NCBI GenBank assembly: GCA_963840855.1
Contig: CAWJBB010000079.1
Span: forward strand, 1 to 64,000
Origin: an uncultured delta proteobacterium
GTDB taxonomy: Bacteria; Desulfobacterota; Binatia; UBA9968
Direction of reading: 5' to 3'
DNA length: 64,000 nucleotides
The notes beneath the pieces are model-generated. The model saw nothing but the letters and a program-made list of their open reading frames with translations. It did not search any database and was not told the origin of the DNA. The position numbers and the translations under genes were made by a program. Positions 3,620-39,196 of the stretch are shown here, in pieces (within the stretch, counting starts at the first letter, position 1; each line of letters opens with the position of its first letter).

Positions 3620-4697
3620 TCACCTTTGCGGTAACGGGTCGGGACCGGTGAGCTTTTTGAACAGATCTACGGCTTCCCGGTCGCGGGGCATGTCTCTGAT
3701 CGTTTGCTCCAGCTCCTCCGGCATTTGCGGTTCGGCCTCCAGGCCGCTGAGTTTTTTATATTCTTTGAAAAACTCGGGATCTCTATAGGTCTTGCGCATC
3801 GCTTCCTGCAGGATCTGGACCCGGTCTTTGGGCGTGCCAGGAGGCAGGATATACGGGTTTCCGCTGCCCACGAAGGTCCGGTACATCGCAACAAGTTTCC
3901 GGTCCATGGCCGACCTGGCAAAGGTCTCGATGTCGGAGAGTTCGGCAAAGCGGCGATGGCTGTGTTTCCGTCCCTTCGGGATCTCGATAATGCCATGGAA
4001 GTCCATAAGACCTTTATCGACCCATTGACGGCTTCTCGTGCAGGAGTGAGTCCGCCACGGTTGTCCTGGCGTCTATCTCACCCTGCTCGATCGCGATATC
4101 GAGTTCGGGTGAGTTGTATCCGGTGACGAATTTGGGTTGTTTCAGGCCGATCAGATACGTGAACATTCGGCCGGAGATGTAAATCAGGTGCCCCACCGAC
4201 TGCGAGCCGATTCTCACACCTGAAGCCGCGCGCAGCTTCTCCCGACTGTCGAGGCCCGCCTCCTTGCGCGTTAAAAAAACATGGTAGCCGCCGCTATAGC
4301 TGGTTCCCAGGTAGCTCACTTTATCGATGTCATAGAGAACCCCGCTCTCTCCGAGAATGGGGTGCATCACGAATGGGGTCGACATACGGCCAATGGTCAG
4401 CCCGTCCGGACGGACCGATTTATAAAGGTGGTTTGCGGCCTTCCGCCCACCGCCGCCGTCCATGTATTCCATAACAATGGTGGGATTTCCCGGAATATAT
4501 TTCTGGAGAAAAGGAACAATGGCTTTGGTCCGCATGTCCCCGACTCCGCCGGGCGCGCTGCTCTGAATGATGGTAATGGTTTTCCCTTGGAAGAAAGAAG
4601 TTTGCGGAAAAGCGACGCCGCCTATGAAGAGACCGAGCAAGTGCGCGCCGAGAAAGATTTGGAGAAACATCACCGACTTGGACGTGTCGCGTCTCAT
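3620..4697 (-). CDS. TctC/Bug-like tripartite tricarboxylate transporter receptor, +1 frameshift near 4028
   Basis: FQGKTITII..APGG.GD, IPGNP...GGGG, PDGLT and PYILPPGTP motifs; removing one base joins ORFs 4014-4703 and 3620-4006 (KPQWVDKGLMDF); paralog of 30904 and 33982. Confidence 0.85.
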
Positions 4698-17461: not shown

Positions 17462-18583
17462 ATGAAAAAGATGGTCTTTTGCTTGACCGTGCTGGTTATA
17501 GTGTCTTCGCTCGGCATGATGAGCGCCTTTGGCGCCGCCGGCCCGAGCCAATCGACAAGCGTAAAACAGACGGCTGATAGCAAAGGTTATCTCTTTCTCG
17601 CGAGTCACGATGAGATTGTCGCGCAGGCCAAGAAAGAGGGGAAGCTGCACGTTCTGACGTCCATCGATCGCGACGTTCTCAAGGCCTCCGCCGACGCCTT
17701 CAAGAAAAAATACCCGTTCATAAACATCCGCTATGAAGAGGTGGGCGGCACCGAAACCTACCAGCGCATGCTTCAGGAGATGAAGACAGGAACGGCAAAG
17801 TGGGACGTCAACTATGTCGCCTTCGACAACTATGAAGACTACCTTCCCTATCAGAAGAAATATGATCTCTTGGGTATGGCACAGCAGGGGGTGCTCAAAA
17901 TCAACCCGGAGTTGGTGGATCCCATCAATCGCCACATCATCGCTCTAGGGGGACATTTTCAGGCGGTGGCGTACAACAAGGAACTCATCCCGGCAGATCG
18001 AGTTCCCGATGCTTGGGAAGGCTTTCTCAAGCCGGAACTCAAAGACAAAAAAATCGCGACGGATGTCAGATCTGTGATGTTTGCCGCGCTCGTCCCGGCC
18101 TGGGGCCTGGAAAAAACGGTGGAGTTCGCCAGGAAATTAGCTGCTCAGAAACCGATCTGGCTCAGGGGCGTGAGCCGCATCATCAATTCTGTCAGGGCCG
18201 GCGAGGTGCCCCTTGGGTTGGGACTCAATGGCAAGAGCATTCTCAGAGAACAGAAAAAAGAAAAAGATCCGAGGGGTGTGTTGGGACTCAAGATCGTGGA
18301 GCCGGTTCCCGTGCGCATGAGCGGCACCGAGGCGGTTTTAGCCAGTGCGGAAAATCCTAACGCTGCGCTGTTATGGCTCGAATTTCAGGGGAGCGCCGAG
18401 GGACAAAAGGTTCTCGATGACGCCGATTTGAACGCATCATTGCTGACTCCCGGGTCCATTCAGGGCGAAATGATTCGCGGCAAGAAAGTTTCCCTCCTCG
18501 GGTGGAAACATTATCGCGACATGGGACGCTACCAGGAAGAAGTCGTCGCCGCTTTCGGGTTCCCCCGAACGGATAAAAAATAA
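17462..18583 (+). CDS. ABC extracellular solute-binding protein
   Basis: Signal peptide; AKKEGKL, AYNKELI...VPDAWE.FL.PELK and PNAALLWLEF motifs; paralog of 36823-37946. Confidence 0.85.
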   Translation: MKKMVFCLTVLVIVSSLGMMSAFGAAGPSQSTSVKQTADSKGYLFLASHDEIVAQAKKEGKLHVLTSIDRDVLKASADAFKKKYPFINIRYEEVGGTETYQRMLQEMKTGTAKWDVNYVAFDNYEDYLPYQKKYDLLGMAQQGVLKINPELVDPINRHIIALGGHFQAVAYNKELIPADRVPDAWEGFLKPELKDKKIATDVRSVMFAALVPAWGLEKTVEFARKLAAQKPIWLRGVSRIINSVRAGEVPLGLGLNGKSILREQKKEKDPRGVLGLKIVEPVPVRMSGTEAVLASAENPNAALLWLEFQGSAEGQKVLDDADLNASLLTPGSIQGEMIRGKKVSLLGWKHYRDMGRYQEEVVAAFGFPRTDKK

Positions 18584-18627
18584 ACGGCCGCTTTCGCTTC
18601 AGGCGGGTTTCGAGAGGAGAAACAAAG

Positions 18628-19770
18628 ATGGCTCGCAACGGTTTCAAAATTTTCGACGCCGACACACACTCGGGCGCTCCCATGGATATTCTCATGCGCT
18701 ATCTCACCCACGCAGAGATCGACAAGCTTGGCGCCTTCGAGCCCTACAAAGTCGTCCACCGCCGCACCGGTCACATCAACTACCACATTGGATCGCGGCA
18801 TTATAAGCGCCGTCTCGGCGCCGCCGGCCCCGATGAAAAACGCGCGGCGCGGATTTACATGGCTCGCAAGGGCGATAATCCTAACCCGCTGCTGGACGAC
18901 GATCCGGCGGAACGCATCAAGGATATGGACCGCGAGGGCGTGGACGTTAATCTGATGCTTCCCGGATCTCTAGGAGCCTTTACGGTCATCGAGGATGTGG
19001 CATTGGAGACGGCGATCTATCGCGCTTATCATCGCTGGATGGCGGATTACTGCGCGGCGTTCCCGCAACGGCTCAAAGGCGTCATCCTGGTGGGCTGCCG
19101 CGATTTGCCGGCGAGCCTTGCCGAGCTTGAACGCTGCGCCAAAGAGAATTGGCCCTTGGCCGTTTTCGTCTTTGCCCCAACCGAGTTTCCTCTCGATCAC
19201 CCGGATCTCGAGTCAGTCTGGGCCGCTTGCCAGCACCATGAGCTAGCTGTGGCGCTGCATACTTTTTCGATCACACCGCCTTACTCACCCGGCGGCCTGG
19301 ACACCTGGCAAAACGAATTTTTGCAGCGCTCTGCCGCGCATCCGTGGTGCGGGCAACGCAACATGGCGGCGCTCATAGGCTCTGGGGTCATGGATCGTTA
19401 TCCCAAGCTGAGACTTGGTGTCTTGGAAGCAGGCCACAGCTGGCTTCCCTTCTGGATGGCCAGAATCGACGAACAAGCGCGCGGCAAGCCTGCCGCCCTT
19501 CCCCAGCTCGGGATGAAGCCCAGCGAATATGTGATGAGCGGCCGTTACTTCCAAAGCATCGAGATTTCCGAAGGCGAGAGACTCACCCAAGTTACCCTCG
19601 ACTTGTTGGGAGAAGATATTCTCATGTACGCCTCGGATTATCCGCACAGCGAGAGTTGGTTCCCCAACTCGGTTGAAACCGTCATGGGATGGAAACTGCC
19701 TGAAGGTGTGAAGCGCAAGTTGTTTTGGGATAACGCGGTGAGGTATTACGCGAGGTATCCGAATGACTGA
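18628..19770 (+). CDS. Amidohydrolase family 2 protein
   Basis: DADTH, DMDREGVD, ALH, LEAG and ASDYPH motifs. Confidence 0.9.
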   Translation: MARNGFKIFDADTHSGAPMDILMRYLTHAEIDKLGAFEPYKVVHRRTGHINYHIGSRHYKRRLGAAGPDEKRAARIYMARKGDNPNPLLDDDPAERIKDMDREGVDVNLMLPGSLGAFTVIEDVALETAIYRAYHRWMADYCAAFPQRLKGVILVGCRDLPASLAELERCAKENWPLAVFVFAPTEFPLDHPDLESVWAACQHHELAVALHTFSITPPYSPGGLDTWQNEFLQRSAAHPWCGQRNMAALIGSGVMDRYPKLRLGVLEAGHSWLPFWMARIDEQARGKPAALPQLGMKPSEYVMSGRYFQSIEISEGERLTQVTLDLLGEDILMYASDYPHSESWFPNSVETVMGWKLPEGVKRKLFWDNAVRYYARYPND

Positions 19771-19836
19771 ACGCACAACCGTTCGAGCTTCGTGACGGCG
19801 CTTGTGAGTAGCCCGGAGTTCAAAGGAGCATCGCCC

Positions 19837-21207
19837 ATGGGAGCGACAGAAAAGCTTGCCGCCTTTGTTGTTGAGTATCCCACCGAGAAAATTCCGAGCC
19901 CCATTCTCCACCTCGGCAAACGCTGCTTGATGAATTTTTTGGCGGTGGCCCTGAATGCCAGCCGCGACCCGTCGCTCGATATTCTCTTGAATTTTTTCCA
20001 GGCCGAGGGAGGCGCGCCGCGGGCTTCCGTGATCGGCCGGAATTTTCGGACAAGCCTGCAAAACGCCACCATGGCTAACGGCTACCTCGGCCATTTTCTC
20101 GATTATGACGACACCCATTATTTGAACATGATCCACGCCTCGTCACCGATTTACCCCGCCTGTTTGGCGGTTGCGGAAACCCACGGCGTGAGCGGCAAAG
20201 AGTTCCTGGCGGCTTACGTGCTAGGCATTGAAGCGGCATGCCGCATCGGTTCCGTGGTGGCGGCGCATTACCGAGAAACCGCCTCTTTCTGGCACATCAC
20301 CAGCATCTGTGGCGTCTTCGGCGCGGCGGCTGCGGCGGGCCGCTTGCTCAAGCTTCAGCCTGAGCCGATGACCTTCGCCTTTGGCATCGCCGCCACTCAA
20401 GCATCCGGTCTAAGGCAAGTATTCGGTTCCATGTGCAAGCCGTTTCACACCGGACATGCCGCGAGAAGCGGCGTCACGGCGGCGCTCCTGGCGCAGGGCG
20501 GCTTTACCTCGACCAAGAACGTTCTTGAAGGCAAGCGCGGCTTTGTCGCAGTGATGGCCAAGGACTACGACCTGGACAAAGCGCTGGAGGGTTTAGGCGA
20601 ACGCTGGGAGCTTCCCCTGGTCGGCATCAAACCGTATCCGTGCGGGGTCGGCAAGCATGGTCTCATCGACGCAATGCTCTGTCTCAGGTCGAAAGACGGC
20701 GTGACGCCGGAAAACGTGGCGAGTATCACCGGCGCGGTGCGCGCTTTCAAAAGTGAGGAAACGCTGCGCCATCCCGCCACCGGCGTGCAGGCAACGTTCT
20801 CGTACCATCATTCGATGGCGGTGGCACTTGTGGACGGCGCCGCGTTCCCGGCCCAGTACAGTGATGAAAAAGCCAACGATCCGTCGATTGCGGCCGTTCG
20901 TGACAAGATCGAGGTCATCGCCGACCCGTCGCTGCCGCGCGGCGTTGTTGCGGCGACGGTGAAACTCAACGATGGCCGGAGCTACAAAGAAGTGCTCGAA
21001 CACCCCACCGGGTCACCCGAGCGACCCATGAGCGATGCCCAAGTCGAGGCCAAGTTTCGCGCCTTGACGGCAGGAGCGCTTGCCACGTCGCGCAGCGAAC
21101 GATTGCTCGAGGCCTGCTGGCAAATCGATCGCCTCGCTGACCTGCGCGATCTTGTGGATTTGTGGCGCGTCGATGGTAACGGCGAACAGATGAGCCAAGT
21201 GGCATAG
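19837..21207 (+). CDS. MmgE/PrpD family protein
   Basis: HFLDYDDTH...IH, KPFHTG.AA..GV.AA and KPYPC...H motifs; AAGGAG RBS. Confidence 0.92.
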   Translation: MGATEKLAAFVVEYPTEKIPSPILHLGKRCLMNFLAVALNASRDPSLDILLNFFQAEGGAPRASVIGRNFRTSLQNATMANGYLGHFLDYDDTHYLNMIHASSPIYPACLAVAETHGVSGKEFLAAYVLGIEAACRIGSVVAAHYRETASFWHITSICGVFGAAAAAGRLLKLQPEPMTFAFGIAATQASGLRQVFGSMCKPFHTGHAARSGVTAALLAQGGFTSTKNVLEGKRGFVAVMAKDYDLDKALEGLGERWELPLVGIKPYPCGVGKHGLIDAMLCLRSKDGVTPENVASITGAVRAFKSEETLRHPATGVQATFSYHHSMAVALVDGAAFPAQYSDEKANDPSIAAVRDKIEVIADPSLPRGVVAATVKLNDGRSYKEVLEHPTGSPERPMSDAQVEAKFRALTAGALATSRSERLLEACWQIDRLADLRDLVDLWRVDGNGEQMSQVA

Positions 21208-23258: not shown

Positions 23259-24298
23259 CTAATAACCACAGCGTTCCGCTACAGCTTTGACGCGCTGGTA
23301 CTCCGGCTCCAGTTCTTTTCGCTCTCTGAGTTCCTTGAAAGCTTCCTCGAGCAGGTCCTGTGCGCACACATCTTTGATGGACGGGACGTTGTAATCGAGC
23401 CCGCCAATCTTCTCCTCGTCCGCTAACATCTGCTCGAATCCCGTCGCTTTGCCATCGATGGGAAACGGCATCACCTCCAGGTCATGTGGCGAGCGCCACG
23501 TGACTCTCTCCCGTTCCTCCGGATCCGCACTCCCGTTCAGCAGCCGCCTGTGCAGCTGACAGAGATACTCAAAATTTTTCGGCATATCGCGGCAGAACCA
23601 ATAGCATCGTATCAGCGCTTTGAGAAAGCTCTTGACCAGATCGGGGCGCTCCTCGAGGATTCGTCCAGTAGCAGCGATGATGCGTTCGGGTCGTCCGTCG
23701 GGCCATTGATCCTTAGGTGTGGCAAGGATGTTAAAACCTTCTTCTTGAGATCTTCCGCATCCGAAGACCCGAGCGGGGCACACTCCACTTTTCCGCCCAG
23801 CAATGCATCCAGATGACGCTTCCTGGAAGGTCCGATCCTCACCCACTCCACGTCGCGCTCTAAGTCCAATCCCGCTTTACGTAGGTTAACCTGCAGCGCC
23901 CAGTGGCGAATGCTGTTGTAGTCGCTGATGCCGACCCGCTGGCCCTTTACATCCTGTAGCGATTTGATATGGGGCGGACCAATAATCACACCCGGTCGCT
24001 GGTTTCTCCAGCCGGCGATGATGTAGACGTCTGCGCCCCGCGCGCGCTGGAAAAAGATCGTTCGGGATTGGACGTCGAGAGCGATATCCACTGATCTTTC
24101 CTTCATTCCCTGCGCGATCCCCAACTTCTCCAGGCCGAAAGGGACCATGGGATCCCGAAGGATCTCATAACCCGGTAATCCCTCCGCGGTTTTGAGTCCC
24201 TCGTCGTACAAAAAATTCATCTCGTGGGCCGCCATGATGGGGACGATGTGAAGCGTATGATAACAAGTCGGACCTATTCTGAGTTTTCCGTCTAGCAT
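23259..24298 (-). CDS. NMT1/SsuA/DszB-fold protein copy 1, -1 frameshift near 23740
   Basis: Near-identical to 28959-29999 and 38052-39092; aaccttcttcttg here versus aaccttgcttcttg in the other copies. Confidence 0.8.
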
Positions 24299-24404
24299 AA
24301 TGCCTCCTTAGAGAACTGCCATAGAATCATAAAGGACCTATTTACTTTTCATTCTCTGGCGCCCGCGTGCTCGTAACGTACTTTGAAGTCCACACACCCG
24401 TGCT

Positions 24405-28958: not shown

Positions 28959-29999
28959 CTAATAGCCCCAGCGGTCCGCTACAGCTTTGACGCGCTGATA
29001 CTCGGGCTCCAGTTCTTTTCGCTCTCTGAGTTCCTTGAAAGCTTCCTCGACCAGGTCCTGGGCGCACACTTCTTTGACGGCCGGGACATTGTAATCGAGC
29101 CCGCCGATCTTCTCCTCATCCGCTAGCATCTGCTCGAATCCCGTCGCTTTGCCGTCGATGGGAAACGGCATCGCCTCCAGATCACGTGGCGCGCGCCAAG
29201 TGGCTCTCTCCCGTTCCTCCGGGTCCGCGCTCGTGAACAGCAGCCGCCTGTGCAGGTTACGCAGATACTCGAAGTTCTTCGGCATATCACGGGAGAACCA
29301 ATACGACCGTATCAACGCTTTCAGAAAGCTCTTGACCAGATCGGGGCGCTCCTCAAGGATTCGTCCAGTAGCAGCGATGATGCGTTCGGGGCGTCCGTCG
29401 GGATATTGATCCTTGGGTGTGGCAAGGATGTTAAAACCTTGCTTCTTGAGATCTTCCGCATCCGAAGACCCGAGCGGGGCACACTCCACTTTTCCGCCCA
29501 GCAATGCATCCAGATGCCGCTCCCTGGCAGGTCCTATCCGCACCCACTCCACGTCGCGCTCTAAGTCCAATCCCGCTTTACGTAGCTGAATCTGCAGCGC
29601 CCAGTGGCGAATGCTATTGTAGTCGCTGATGCCGACCCGCTGGCCCTTTACATCCTTTAGCGATTTGATATGGGGCGGACCAATGATCACACCGGGTACC
29701 TGGTTTCTCCAGCCGGCGATAATGTAGACGTCTGCGCCCCGCGCGCGCTGGAAAAAGATCGTTCGGGATTGGACGTCCAGAGCGATATCCACTGATCTTT
29801 CCTTCATTCCCTGCGCTATCCCGAGCTTCTCCAGACCAAAAGGGACCATGGGATCCCGAAGGATCTCATAACCCTGAAATCCGTCCGCGGTTTTGAGTCC
29901 CTCGTCGTACAAAAAATTCATCTCGTGAGCCGCCATGATGGGGACGATGTGAAGCGTATGATAACAAGTCGGACCTATTCTGAGTTTTCCGTCTAGCAT
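28959..29999 (-). CDS. NMT1/SsuA/DszB-fold protein copy 2 (intact, no signal peptide)
   Basis: IKSLKDVKGQRVGI, LRKAGLDLERDVEWV.IG and ERPDLVKSFLKAL motifs; GGAGG RBS before MLDGK. Confidence 0.8.
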   Translation of the reverse strand: MLDGKLRIGPTCYHTLHIVPIMAAHEMNFLYDEGLKTADGFQGYEILRDPMVPFGLEKLGIAQGMKERSVDIALDVQSRTIFFQRARGADVYIIAGWRNQVPGVIIGPPHIKSLKDVKGQRVGISDYNSIRHWALQIQLRKAGLDLERDVEWVRIGPARERHLDALLGGKVECAPLGSSDAEDLKKQGFNILATPKDQYPDGRPERIIAATGRILEERPDLVKSFLKALIRSYWFSRDMPKNFEYLRNLHRRLLFTSADPEERERATWRAPRDLEAMPFPIDGKATGFEQMLADEEKIGGLDYNVPAVKEVCAQDLVEEAFKELRERKELEPEYQRVKAVADRWGY

Positions 30000-30158
30000 A
30001 ATGCCTCCTTCGAGAACTGCCATACAATCATAAAGGACCTATTTTCTTTTCATTTCTCTGGCGCCCGCGTGCTCGCAACGTACTTTGAAGTCCATACACC
30101 AGTGTCAGCAGCACTGCATCGCTCATTCAAGCCGAATCACAATTTGTCGTCCTCTTTG

Positions 30159-30725
30159 TCATGAACCGATGGTTACCGGCACTTTGCGCCCGTTCAAAAT
30201 TAGGTGCGCCACGACTTCGACGGGCTGGCGCAGCGTGTTCGTTGCGTAACAGGAACGTTCCATGAATTCCACAAGCTCAACAACTCGTTCTTCTTTTTCC
30301 AGACTCTGCAGGTCGAGTTCGTACGTGAAACGGCGGCAGGCTGAAGGAACATCGGTGAGACCAAATTTGCCTCTCTGGTCGAATTCTCCCTTTACCGTAA
30401 GCTCCGCCTTGTCGATCCGCACGCCGAGATATGACGCACACTGCGTCAACTGGCTCAGCAGTCAAAGGCCGACCGAGGAGACCAGATATTGGAGGGGCGC
30501 GGGGCCCTTGCCCGTCCCTCCCCGCTCCGCCGGCTCGTCGCACCCGATGACGTAGCCGCCGGGGACCTTGGCTTCCTTGTAGTGGTCCCGGATCAAGCGG
30601 ATCGTCGCCTGATGCGTCGTCACCGCTTTGTCCGGATCCTTCAGGAAAGCCTGCCGTCGTTTTTCAAAGATCTCCTTGTGATGCTCATAGTCTATCGTAC
30701 AACAGCTCTCTTCCTTCTCATCCAT
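30159..30725 (-). CDS. OsmC-family peroxiredoxin-like protein, probable selenoprotein (in-frame UGA at 30462-30464)
   Basis: ORFs 30462-30734 and 30159-30449 are in the same frame: DEPAERGGTGKGPAPLQYLVSSVGL-[TGA]-LLSQLTQCA...ERSCYATNTL; the UGA falls at the OsmC catalytic Cys; GAGGTG RBS before ATG 30725. Confidence 0.85.
30423..30459 (-). promoter_or_regulatory. Bacterial SECIS-like hairpin
   Basis: Starts 2 nt after the UGA: GCUGAG-ccagu-UGACGCA-gug-UGCGUCA-uau-CUCGGC (6-bp lower stem with one GU pair, perfect 7-bp upper stem, G in the apical loop). Confidence 0.75.
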
Positions 30726-30903
30726 TTGATTCACCTCTTTCGTCCTTCTAGTAGAGTCGGTACCGTCTTACTGCGTCACATTTTCTCACCCCGACGGAGT
30801 CGCTGGGTCACCCGCATGATAAAACGCCCCCGCATATTCCACCCTCGGTTTTCGCGCCGGTTCACCGCTCTGATCCGTACCAAACATTGAACGTTGAACC
30901 AGA

Positions 30904-31956
30904 TTACCGCGGCGGGAGCGGTCCCGCACCCGAGAGTTGCTTCAGCTGATCGATCACCTCGGGATCGCGGGGAATGTCCGCCACGATCTTCTTCAGCTCT
31001 TCCGGTCCGAGCGGTGAAGCGTCATCGGCGACGAGCTTATGAAAATAGACCGGGAACTCGGGATCTTTGGCGATTCTGCGAAAAGCGGCTTCGAGTATCT
31101 GGACTGTGTCCTTGGGCGTGCCCGGAGGAAGAATAAAGGGAGAGCCGACCGCGCGGAAACCGCGAAACAAGCTGATGAGCCTTCTTTCTCTTTCGCTTCT
31201 GGCGAAGGTTTCGATTTCCGGCAGGTGCCCCAGACGCGGGTGGTGTTCGCCCTTCGGCACTTCCACGATGCTGTGAAAGTTCATCAGCTTCTTGTCGAGC
31301 CACTCGGGGTTGCGGCGCAGCACCGAGATGGCGTTGTTGGCGCGCGCGTCCAGCTCACCCCGGGTCAAGGCGGCATCGATCTCCAGCGACGTGTAGCCGG
31401 CGATGAACTTAGCATCCTTTAACCCGATCAAGTAAGCGAACATCCGGCCGGCGACATAGGAGACAGCGCCCACCGATTGCGCGCCGATCCTCAGACCCGA
31501 AGCGGCGCGCAGCTTCTCGATGGTGTCCAGCCCCAGTTCCCTGCGGGTGTAGATCACGTTGCTATTTTCGTGGTCGGGTGTGCCGAGATAAATGAACTTG
31601 TCGATGTCGTAGTTCACGCCCGACTCACCCATAACAGCCAAGGAGATCATCGTGCCGCTGGCTGCGCCGATGGTGAGACCGTCCGGTTTGACGGAGCTGT
31701 AGAGGTGGTTGGCGCCCTTGCGCCCGCCGCCCCCGTCCATGTATGCCATCACGATGTTTGGATTTCCGGGGATATGCTTTTTGAGAAACGTCAGCACCGC
31801 CCGGGTGCGCAGATCGCTCGTTCCTCCGGCGGCCCTGGTTGCCAGCAAGGTGATCGTCTTGCCTTCGTAGAAATTCACCTGCGCATGAGCGAGCGCGGGC
31901 GTGAGTCCACCCAAAATGATCATTGCGAGCGCAGCGATGAATTGGGGCTTTTTCAT
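30904..31956 (-). CDS. TctC/Bug-like receptor protein
   Basis: Signal peptide; FYEGKTIT, IPGNP...GGGG, KPDGLT and PFILPPGTP motifs. Confidence 0.88.
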   Translation of the reverse strand: MKKPQFIAALAMIILGGLTPALAHAQVNFYEGKTITLLATRAAGGTSDLRTRAVLTFLKKHIPGNPNIVMAYMDGGGGRKGANHLYSSVKPDGLTIGAASGTMISLAVMGESGVNYDIDKFIYLGTPDHENSNVIYTRRELGLDTIEKLRAASGLRIGAQSVGAVSYVAGRMFAYLIGLKDAKFIAGYTSLEIDAALTRGELDARANNAISVLRRNPEWLDKKLMNFHSIVEVPKGEHHPRLGHLPEIETFARSERERRLISLFRGFRAVGSPFILPPGTPKDTVQILEAAFRRIAKDPEFPVYFHKLVADDASPLGPEELKKIVADIPRDPEVIDQLKQLSGAGPLPPR

Positions 31957-33981: not shown

Positions 33982-35034
33982 TTACCGCGGGGGAAGAGCG
34001 TCCGGGCCTGCGATCTTCTGAAAGATGTCCACGATCTCGCGCTCCCGCGGCAACTCCCTGACGGCCTTTTCCATCTCCTCAGGCAGGAGCGGCGTGGCGT
34101 CGTCGTTCGTGAGCTTTTTGTACTCCTTGTGGAACTCCGGATCTCGGAACGTCTTGCGAAACGCCTCTCTAAGAATCTCCGCCCGGTCCGGGGGCGTGCC
34201 CGGAGGGAGAATGTAAGGGGAGCCTACCAGGCGAAATGCGCGGAACATGGCCAGGACCCTGCTCTCCTTATCGCTCCGGGCGAAGCTCTCGATCTCCGGC
34301 AGGGATGCGAAACGGGGATAGGGGTGCTTATCCCCCTTGGGAATTTCCAGGATGGCGTGGACGTGGACCAGGCCTTTGGTCAGTGAATCGGCGCCGCGCT
34401 GCAGCACGGTATCGGCGATGTTGGCGCGCGAGTCGATCTCTCCCCGAAGCAGGTTTACGTCCAGCTCTACTCCCGAGTAGCCGGTCACGAAGCGAGGGTC
34501 TCTGAGTCCGATGAGCCAAGCGAACAACCGGCCGGTGATGTAAACGAAATGCCCTACGGCGTGGGCGCCGACGCGGAGGCCGGCGTGGGCGCGCAGTTTC
34601 TCAAGCGAGTTGAGGCCGAGCTCGCCGCGGGTCACGAAGACGTAGTGGCTCGCGGTGTTGGGCGCGCCCAAGTAAATAAACTTGTCGATGTCGTACTGCA
34701 CCCCCGCCTGCCCCTGAATGGCGTTGGCCACAACGCCTCCCACGTGGCCTACGGTCAGACCATCCGGGCGAGCCGAGCTGAAAACGTAGTTGCCCGCTTT
34801 ACGCCCTCCTCCCCCTGGCATGTACTCCGCCAAGATGTAGGGGTTGCCGGGAATGTACTTGCGCAGAAATGGGATCACCGCTTTAACGCGCATGTCGCCG
34901 GTTCCCCCTGCCTCGCCCGATTGGATCAGCGTAATGGTTTTGCCTTGGTAAAAAGGGGCCTGGCCATGGACCTGACGGCCAAGCAACAAAGGCAGGACAA
35001 GGCCTCCCACAAGAAGGCTAGTTTTGAATTTCAT
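33982..35034 (-). CDS. TctC/Bug-like receptor protein
   Basis: Signal peptide; FYQGKTIT, IPGNP..PGGGG, RPDGLT and PYILPPGTP motifs. Confidence 0.88.
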   Translation of the reverse strand: MKFKTSLLVGGLVLPLLLGRQVHGQAPFYQGKTITLIQSGEAGGTGDMRVKAVIPFLRKYIPGNPYILAEYMPGGGGRKAGNYVFSSARPDGLTVGHVGGVVANAIQGQAGVQYDIDKFIYLGAPNTASHYVFVTRGELGLNSLEKLRAHAGLRVGAHAVGHFVYITGRLFAWLIGLRDPRFVTGYSGVELDVNLLRGEIDSRANIADTVLQRGADSLTKGLVHVHAILEIPKGDKHPYPRFASLPEIESFARSDKESRVLAMFRAFRLVGSPYILPPGTPPDRAEILREAFRKTFRDPEFHKEYKKLTNDDATPLLPEEMEKAVRELPREREIVDIFQKIAGPDALPPR

Positions 35035-36822: not shown

Positions 36823-37946
36823 TCAGTCCGCTCTGGGTAAGCCGAAGGCCTTAAATACTTGCTGGAGAAATTTGTCGGTGTTGTGGAGCGTATTCCAGTC
36901 GTTCATCGACAGCTTCTTTCCTTGGATCACCTTTGCCAGCCCCGATTCCGGAGAATAGATCGACGTATTGAACGGCTCATAGTTGCTAATTATCTTTTGG
37001 CCTTCAGGGGTGGCCTGAAATTCCATCCACAGCAGGCTTGCATTGGGATGAGGAGCTGTACGGCTTATTGCGCCAAATTCTTGAAGTCTACCCGGCACCG
37101 GCTCAATAACCTTGCACTGCATAGAACCGCTGGCGTCTTTCTTCGCAGCTCTCATACAGGAGTGATAGTACGCCAGGTGAAACATAGTGTGCTCCCCACC
37201 GACAATCGCCGTAAGGGGCCGCGCGTCTGGCCACGAACCCAGACGGGTTCCTGCGCGGCAATTTTCTCGGCATAGTTCAGCGCCCACTTCTCACCCAGGC
37301 CCGCAGCCAGGGCGGCAAACCCCTGGGGACGGATGTCGACGAGAAATTTCTTCCCTTTAAGATCCGGCCTAAGAAATTCCTCCCACCCGTTCGGAACTTT
37401 GTCGTCCGAAATCAACTTTCGGTTGTATCCGATGGCGTGAATGGAGCTGCCCATACTCACGATGGTGCGATGCTTAGGGTCAATCATTGCCGGTGGAATC
37501 GCCAGCACTTTGTGCGTCGCCATGCCCAGGAAATCGAATTTCTTGATGTAGGGAATGACTGCAGTCCAGAAATCCGGCGATATGTTGAAGACATCCCAGT
37601 CCTTTGCTCCTCCCGCCTTTAACTCCAAGTAAAATCTTTGTGGGTCAGTGGTGCCCGTCATCTCTGCCACCTGAACGTCGATGAATGGATAATGCTTCCT
37701 GAAAGCGTTGATCACCGCTTTATAAGTGTCCGGTTCGAAGGAGCCCAGGACACGCAGTTTCCCCTCCTTCTTGGCCCCAGCCACGATCTCGTCGTGACTG
37801 GTCAGAAAAGTATAACCGGCAGCCTCAGCTTCCTGCCTGGCTTTGGGCAGTACGGGGTCAAGCGATGCGGCAAAGACATCCGCGCCGATCAGGCAACAGA
37901 ACACCACAAAGGACAAGGGAGCCGTCCGTAAAAAGCGTGCTTTCAT
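36823..37946 (-). CDS. ABC extracellular solute-binding protein, frameshift near 37215
   Basis: SHDEIVAGAKKEGKL, GYNRKLI and PHPNASLLWMEF motifs; ORFs 37152-37946 and 36823-37287 join at WVRGQTR/ALTAIVGGE. Confidence 0.82.
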
Positions 37947-38051: not shown

Positions 38052-39092
38052 CTAATAACCCCAGCGTTCCGCTACAGCTTTGACTCGCTGGTACTCCGGC
38101 TCCAGTTCTTTTCGCGCTCTGAGTTCCTTGAAAGCTTCCTCGAGCAGGTCCTGTGCGCACACATCTTTGACGGCCGGGACATTGTAATCGAGTCCGCCGA
38201 TTCTCTGCTCATCCGCCAGCATCTGCTCGAGCCCCGTCGCTTTGCCGTCGATGGGAAACGGCATCACCTCCAGGTCGCGTGGCGCGCTCCACGTGGCTCT
38301 CTCCCGTTCCTCCGGATCCGCACTCCCGTTCAGCAGCCGCCTGTGCAGCTGACAGAGATACTCAAAATTCTTTGGCATATCGCGGCAGAACCAATAGCAT
38401 CGTATCAGCGCTTTGAGAAAGTTCTTGACCAAATCGGGGCGCTCCTCAAGGATTCGCCCAGTAGCAGCGATGATGCGTTCGGGCCGTCCGTCGGGATATT
38501 GATCCTTCGGTGTGGCAAGGATGTTGAAACCTTGCTTCTTGAGATCTTCCGCATCCGACGACGATATCGGGGCGCACTCCACTTTTCCGCCCAACAATGC
38601 ATCCAGATGCCGCTTCCTCGAAGGTCCTATCCTCACCCACTCCACGTCGCGCTCTAAGTCCAATCCCGCTTTACGTAGCTGAATCTGCAGCGACCAGTGG
38701 CGAATGCTATTGTAGTCGCTGATGCCGACTCGCTGGCCCTTTACATCCTTTAGGGATTTGATATGGGGCGGACCAATAATCACACCCGGTACCTGGTTTC
38801 TCCAGCCGGCGATAATGTAGACGTCTGCGCCCCGCGCGCGCTGAAAAAAGATCGTCCGCGATTGGACGTCCAGAGCGATATCCACTGATCTTTCCTTCAT
38901 TCCCTGCGCGATCCCCAACTTCTCCAGGCCAAAAGGGACCATCGGATCCCGAAGGATCTCATAACCCGGTAATCCCTCCGCGGTTTTGAGTCCCTCGTCG
39001 TACAAAAAATTCATCTCGTGAGCCGCCATGATGGGGACGATGTGAAGCGTATGATAACAAGTCGGACCTATTCTCAGTTTTCCGTCTAACAT
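38052..39092 (-). CDS. NMT1/SsuA/DszB-fold protein copy 3 (intact, no signal peptide)
   Basis: Near-identical to copies 1 and 2. Confidence 0.8.
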   Translation of the reverse strand: MLDGKLRIGPTCYHTLHIVPIMAAHEMNFLYDEGLKTAEGLPGYEILRDPMVPFGLEKLGIAQGMKERSVDIALDVQSRTIFFQRARGADVYIIAGWRNQVPGVIIGPPHIKSLKDVKGQRVGISDYNSIRHWSLQIQLRKAGLDLERDVEWVRIGPSRKRHLDALLGGKVECAPISSSDAEDLKKQGFNILATPKDQYPDGRPERIIAATGRILEERPDLVKNFLKALIRCYWFCRDMPKNFEYLCQLHRRLLNGSADPEERERATWSAPRDLEVMPFPIDGKATGLEQMLADEQRIGGLDYNVPAVKDVCAQDLLEEAFKELRARKELEPEYQRVKAVAERWGY

Positions 39093-39196
39093 GATGCCTC
39101 CCTCTAGAACTGACATACAATCATAAAGGACCTATTTTCTTTTCATTTCTCTGGCGCCCGCGCGCTCGCAACGTACTTTGAAGCTCATACACCCCT

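Follow-up and report, generated by a model that had tools for sequence, protein, structure and literature searches.

Positions 30725 to 30159 of the window (the whole stretch of 64,000 nucleotides that was analysed) very probably form, on the minus strand, one gene for a selenoprotein of the OsmC superfamily, 188 residues long, in which residue 88 is selenocysteine (Sec), decoded from an in-frame UGA. Sec insertion at this codon by means of a downstream SECIS element, as proposed in the initial annotation, is well supported by family membership, by a column that holds either Cys or Sec in homologs, by a covarying hairpin and by the presence of sel genes in the genome. The protein is a new member of an already described and curated family of OsmC-like selenoproteins. 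The features of the gene are reported in Table 1.

Table 1. Features of the selenoprotein gene, with their positions in the window.
Feature	Position	Strand	Remarks
OsmC-related selenoprotein gene (very probable)	30159..30725	minus	ATG 30725; Sec codon 88; stop TGA 30161-30159; product 188 aa
In-frame UGA, predicted to be read as Sec88	30462..30464	minus	TGA column of the family; Cys in homologs
Shine-Dalgarno-like AGAGGTG	30732..30738	minus	6 nt before ATG 30725; seen directly in the sequence
N-terminal Cys8-Cys9 pair	30699..30704 (codons 8-9)	minus	specific to the subfamily of this gene
Cys159, second conserved Cys, presumed resolving	30249..30251	minus	near-invariant in the family alignment
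Predicted bacterial SECIS element	30423..30459	minus	fold and conservation; lower stem 30459-30454/30428-30423; upper stem 30448-30442/30438-30432; loop 30441-30439

Translation of the minus strand agrees with the original description of two ORFs in the same frame (30462..30734 and 30159..30449), split by the single TGA 30464-30462; reading through from the ATG gives the full product, with Sec as residue 88. This ATG is taken as the start of the gene, because two orthologs show an in-frame stop immediately before the equivalent Met. At the opposite end, orthologs terminate at or near the equivalent position with TAG or TAA, the window gene with an ordinary TGA. The pair of N-terminal Cys residues, also pointed out at the outset, is present.

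The read-through product matches the Pfam OsmC family (PF02566) at 54.7 bits, the gathering threshold being 27.5, and the NCBIfam model NF041052, "OsmC-related (seleno)protein", at 131.7 bits, the curated cut-off being 95, over positions 3-144 of the 144 of the model; in a six-frame scan of the genome with the same model, the window gene scores 123.4 bits. The AlphaFold2 model, obtained from a family alignment of 37 rows, features a mean pLDDT of 92.6 and a pTM of 0.84, and its best matches in the PDB, found by Foldseek, are all OsmC/Ohr structures (TM up to 0.88, normalised by target): an OsmC/Ohr fold is confidently predicted. In the model, residue 88 is located within a long central helix (77-100) and Cys159 at the kink between two helices (145-158 and 160-165).

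The UGA was proposed to take the place of the catalytic Cys, and it does replace the first active-site Cys of OsmC proteins, which in Ohr and OsmC is the peroxidatic one. In the family profile alignment the Sec column is occupied by Cys in all five solved OsmC-family chains shown (2opl, 3cje, 9wo1, 2onf, 1vla), and the same holds for two paralogs; Cys159 aligns with a second Cys in four of these chains, 2opl having no second Cys. Alignment to homologs, for which either Cys or UGA was anticipated, gave an invariant Sec/Cys column in the 37-row family alignment, with 35 UGA and 2 Cys.

The Ohr/OsmC hydroperoxide reductases (PDB 1n2f, 1qwi, 1vla) have the fold and both Cys positions in common with the window protein, but their sequence similarity to it is weak. 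The window protein is not filed as an Ohr or OsmC equivalog, because the Ohr equivalog model (NF052637: 13.9 bits, cut-off 240) and the SACOL1771 peroxiredoxin model (TIGR03563: 15 bits, cut-off 166) score far below their cut-offs. According to a passage in PMC9312934, the family sits closer to the poorly understood COG1765/YhfA branch.

Four matches to the NF041052 family are found in this genome, two with TGA and two with Cys in the Sec column. The second OsmC-like selenoprotein gene (C68:42898-43320, minus strand, 162.6 bits) falls in the main NF041052 subfamily; it carries a U-L-L-T-Q motif and a conserved SECIS of its own. The weaker, Cys-type paralogs are located at C18:4196-4600 and C69:40619-40981.

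When this genome and 60 relatives were scanned, 60 of the 61 genomes featured a family match at E <= 1e-20, and an in-frame TGA was present in 117 of the 125 matches above cut-off, the other 8 being without it. If two unpublished genomes (G009 and G015, six rows) are excluded, TGA is found in 113 of 119 rows and the family in 58 of 59 genomes: the conclusions do not depend on these two genomes. Below the NF041052 cut-off, 8 of 21 rows carry TGA. TGA is present in the window gene and in each of 50 loci taken from relatives with published genomes, always in the context G-[FL]-U-[LM]-[LF]-[ST]-Q; because only rows already known to bear TGA supplied these loci, they illustrate the pattern and are not an unbiased sample. 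Protein identity holds on both sides of the TGA, at 73-85% within the subfamily of the window gene and 30-43% to the other subfamilies.

Among more distant members, two archaeal ones (L086 and L087, from Nitrososphaerales bins) carry Cys in the Sec column, and one from an actinobacterial Acidimicrobiaceae bin (L088) carries TGA; because of the latter, the Sec form extends beyond the lineage of the window gene. In some relatives, family genes hold TAG besides TGA (G006:C189, or L048, in which the frame stops 84 codons past the Sec codon; G033:C325; G034:C9; G035:C2:175309). These may be decaying copies or errors.

The two-tier hairpin described in the initial annotation, starting 2 nt after the UGA, is found exactly as stated. 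After the dinucleotide CU, GCUGAG pairs with CUCGGC to form the lower stem; above it, UGACGCA and UGCGUCA form an upper stem of 7 bp, closed by a GUG loop. The conserved upper part, 17 nt in length, begins 13 nt past the UGA, and the apical loop 20 nt past it. The predicted folding energy of a 66-nt stretch is -28.6 kcal/mol (z = -2.42), 5 of 200 shuffles being as good: taken alone, the fold statistic of this single sequence is only modest.

Conservation of the hairpin was evaluated on a gap-free alignment of 39 distinct family sequences, each including the UGA and the following 45 nt. In the upper helix 95.6% of cells are paired, and four of the seven pairs vary on both sides (GC/UA, AU/UG/GC, GC/CG, GC/AU); the first two bases of the loop, G and U, are invariant. 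For both helices together, 84.0% of cells are paired, as opposed to 33-53% in slid controls, where the 3' partners are displaced by 1-3 columns. The covariation score was reached by none of 500 column shuffles; since the relatedness of the sequences inflates this shuffle control, covariation is judged mainly from the slid controls and from the types of pairs. The lower helix, 70.5% paired, is far less conserved than the upper one. Thus, of the SECIS-like element proposed at the outset, the upper tier is conserved and covarying, while the lower tier is poorly conserved.

Conservation of the upper part, with compensatory changes, extends over three subfamilies. These changes of pairs accompany amino-acid changes between the subfamilies (T-Q-C-A-S, T-R-Y-A-S, S-R-Y-G-E), and RNA pairing is therefore kept as the protein drifts. 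No match was found by an Rfam scan of positions 29500-31500 at E up to 10; this is expected, because SECIS elements inside coding regions are poorly modelled. The predicted element resembles the canonical bacterial SECIS, of the E. coli fdhF type, in being a stem-loop directly 3' of the UGA, within the coding sequence, and in having a small apical loop with G-U. Bacterial SECIS elements are described in general terms in PMC9312934 and PMC1088965.

A search of the genome for the selenocysteine machinery, suggested together with the original proposal, recovered three of the four sel genes. These are selA (616.3 bits), selB (208 and 193 bits, in two pieces) and selD (382.6 bits), clustered at C1:37.5-42.1 kb. 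The selD gene (C1:37592-38518, minus strand) lies directly downstream of selA and selB and itself codes for a selenoprotein: its N-terminal Gly-rich loop contains an in-frame TGA. The assembly did not yield the fourth gene, selC, which codes for tRNA-Sec: ARAGORN reports 39 tRNAs, none with anticodon tca; the best match to RF01852, at 43 bits, is below the cut-off of 47 and sits on a tRNA-Ser; blastn with the tRNA-Sec of relatives returned nothing longer than 16 nt. In selB, a single additional base at C1:39984 (C1:39961-40007; reference, genome G002 of the same genus) splits the gene over two frames.

On these grounds, the UGA could be a plain stop in this strain, Sec decoding having been lost with the frameshift in selB and the absence of selC, and the gene a decaying relic that yields a fragment of 87 residues. 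We consider this quite unlikely. The missing tRNA-Sec says little, because the assembly is 94% complete, in 93 contigs, and lacks any tRNA-Asn too. A near-identical tRNA-Sec, at 76-78 bits, is present in four of the five ortholog-carrying relatives checked, one of them of the same genus; in one case it is located on a contig of 1.8 kb. Assembly incompleteness is the most likely reason for its absence here. The extra base in selB was checked on the Logan contigs of four metagenome runs, two of which (X2 and X5, from two studies) cover the place; the best share of the selA-selB-selD stretch in a run is 0.36, and none reaches half. In both X2 and X5 the near-identical contig, one for each run and with one other letter different in each, leaves the extra base out, so that the frameshift probably reflects an assembly error or a private variant, and not a feature of the population. 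Moreover, the two OsmC-like Sec genes and selD, with its own Sec codon, are in other respects intact, which argues against a loss of decoding.

Alternatively, an ordinary OsmC gene of the Cys type could have acquired the TGA by nonsense mutation, or through a sequencing error, the locus being then a pseudogene or an artefact. This is in agreement with the frameshifted appearance of several window genes and of selB, which points to assembly errors or decaying genes. Yet the TGA column recurs in the 50 fetched loci, which were selected for TGA, and also in the 113 of 119 rows of the unselected scan; the identity of 73-85% continues on both sides of the codon, and no full-length Cys form was found among close relatives. 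An accident at this codon is therefore extremely improbable. We give equally little credit to the decoding of UGA as Trp, Gly or Cys, through a changed code or near-cognate read-through. Nothing specific points to it, the same open frame being generated by any read-through, and it is opposed by the Cys found in the column in homologs, by a covarying hairpin of the SelB type after the codon and by the presence of selA, selB and selD. Furthermore, TGA terminates 34 of the 97 long ORFs on the contig, as well as the window gene, and, being thus an ordinary stop, excludes a global recoding or an altered genetic code. Sec insertion at the UGA is by far the preferred reading.

By the route established for bacteria, SelB, together with GTP and Sec-tRNA(Sec), would bind the hairpin on the mRNA under translation and deliver Sec to the UGA. 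By analogy with the two-Cys mechanism of OsmC/Ohr proteins, Sec88, in the long central helix, may act as the nucleophile towards a hydroperoxide or some other oxidised substrate; Cys159 would then resolve the selenenic acid so formed, giving a selenenylsulfide, to be reduced in turn by a thiol donor. A peroxidase function may be attributed to the OsmC-related selenoprotein on the basis of this analogy.

The family is a known one, since it was reported in 2005, is included in reviews and is represented by a model curated at NCBI. OsmC-like selenoproteins (COG1765/YhfA, with a UxxT motif) were described from the Sargasso Sea by Zhang, Fomenko and Gladyshev (PMC1088965), in accordance with the mention of earlier reports in the initial annotation, and are listed in reviews from 2022 and 2026 (PMC9312934, PMC13188914). 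The label of "hidden" selenoprotein, originally given to the gene, is consequently too strong: it is hidden from naive gene callers only. As described in PMC1088965, the marine family is alike in its OsmC fold, in the Sec within a UxxT-type motif and in the G of a small apical SECIS loop; the comparison, by description only, shows UxxS (U-L-L-S) in the window gene and UxxT in the C68 paralog. The published family comes from marine plankton, while the window gene belongs to a soil, Binatia-like lineage. No new kind of system is involved, the replacement of Cys by Sec in OsmC-like proteins and the SECIS mechanism being both already established. Literature matches listed for Binatia and selenoproteins were all unrelated medical papers.

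With the other proteins that match NF041052, the window protein shares the Sec/Cys column and the second conserved Cys, but its subfamily is the lowest-scoring one with Sec (in the genome scan, about 123 bits, as compared to 160-177 for the main group) and adds an N-terminal extension of about 40 residues, with the Cys-Cys pair, and a further Cys nine residues past the Sec. Among solved structures, the family profile finds its best relative in the OsmC-like protein GSU2788 from Geobacter sulfurreducens (PDB 2opl, from structural genomics; E = 1.3e-34), which at 187 aa is close in length to the window protein and has a helical extension at the N-terminus and a Foldseek TM of 0.73-0.78. It features Cys instead of Sec, however, together with the lack of a second Cys, and resembles the C69 Cys paralog more than the window gene.

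The Cys-Cys pair is found in all nine members of the subfamily for which the contig includes the N-terminus (the window gene, six orthologs, L083 and L085), and is absent from the other two subfamilies; the additional Cys (Cys97) is present in nine of the ten members. The closest named relatives are Candidatus Binatia bins, and one is labelled Syntrophobacteraceae. A Binatia-type, apparently Sec-only OsmC subfamily with a conserved N-terminal Cys-Cys is a mildly new point. It is conceivable, although rather doubtful, that in this putatively Sec-only subfamily from Binatia-like soil bacteria the Cys-Cys (followed by conserved Tyr and His) and the extra Cys form a redox relay, or a metal site, recycling the selenenylsulfide between Sec88 and Cys159; such an OsmC-type enzyme would have four redox-active chalcogen centres and would work by a mechanism unlike those of known Ohr and OsmC proteins.

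Standard pipelines had been expected to call such a gene as fragments, and this is what is observed: ten close relatives found in a large protein collection, none of them a full-length Cys form, cover 27-52% of the query and are pieces of 103-198 residues, which carry the name "hypothetical protein" or no name at all. In metagenome bins, therefore, the selenoproteins of this lineage are systematically under-called, and the value of the result is one of annotation. In a bacterial order where nearly every genome (60 of 61) has from one to several OsmC-like selenoprotein genes, the family may be, judging from gene content, a prominent part of the redox defence.

The genomic localization of the gene was described at the outset as lying between a TctC-like receptor and a binding-fold protein. 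The latter, downstream at 30023..28959 and separated by 135 nt, is indeed an NMT1/THI5-like protein; for the upstream neighbour (31956..30904, gap of 178 nt) the likeness to TctC is sub-threshold (PF03401, E = 0.065). We read the gene as free-standing, because of the gaps on its two sides, and it is probably transcribed alone, not with the surrounding binding-protein genes. A scan of 29950-31000 for promoters and terminators gave no promoter-like site and one terminator-like site, which is on the wrong strand and no more than what shuffles give; this outcome carries no information on the transcription unit.

Synteny was evaluated by tblastn, with seven neighbour proteins as queries and 12 family loci as targets: the neighbours do not recur beside the six orthologs, save for one weak solute-binding match (L056). 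A Pfam run on 23 of the 38 flanking ORFs shows six different neighbourhoods for the six orthologs: an amidase and a HepT-like protein; a metallo-beta-lactamase-fold protein; YflT and BON stress proteins; an FGE-sulfatase with an NMT1-like protein and a TctA fragment (L069); a PLP enzyme; an ornithine cyclodeaminase-like protein with ABC permeases. The NMT1-like gene and the TctA fragment of L069 are taken as a coincidence in transporter-rich genomes. A selenium-dependent redox step in a catabolic module, as initially suggested, is not borne out, neighbours being different at all six orthologous loci.

Besides the OsmC gene, 10 of the 33 pairs of ORFs bridged by a TGA in the window were scanned for further selenoproteins, and in none of the ten does a Pfam domain span the TGA. 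One candidate, at 18577-21204 on the plus strand, is made of an amidohydrolase and an MmgE/PrpD-family gene in one frame, split only by TGA 19768-19770, with Pfam domains on either side; it was rejected, as these are two adjacent genes.

The window is rich in duplicated binding-protein genes. Three copies of the NMT1/THI5-like gene are located on the minus strand (28959-30023, 38052-39116 and 23262-24322): two are intact and 93% identical, and the third, 84-90% identical to them, is split over two frames. The 350-residue protein with sub-threshold similarity to TctC likewise has three minus-strand paralogs (30904-31956, 33982-35034 and 3623-4640), sharing 50-57% identity; the last one is in two pieces, which suggests a frameshift. 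Finally, an SBP_bac_8-like solute-binding gene (36829-37799, minus strand) is found as two overlapping pieces, 37799-37194 and 37221-36829, suggesting a frameshift or an assembly indel.
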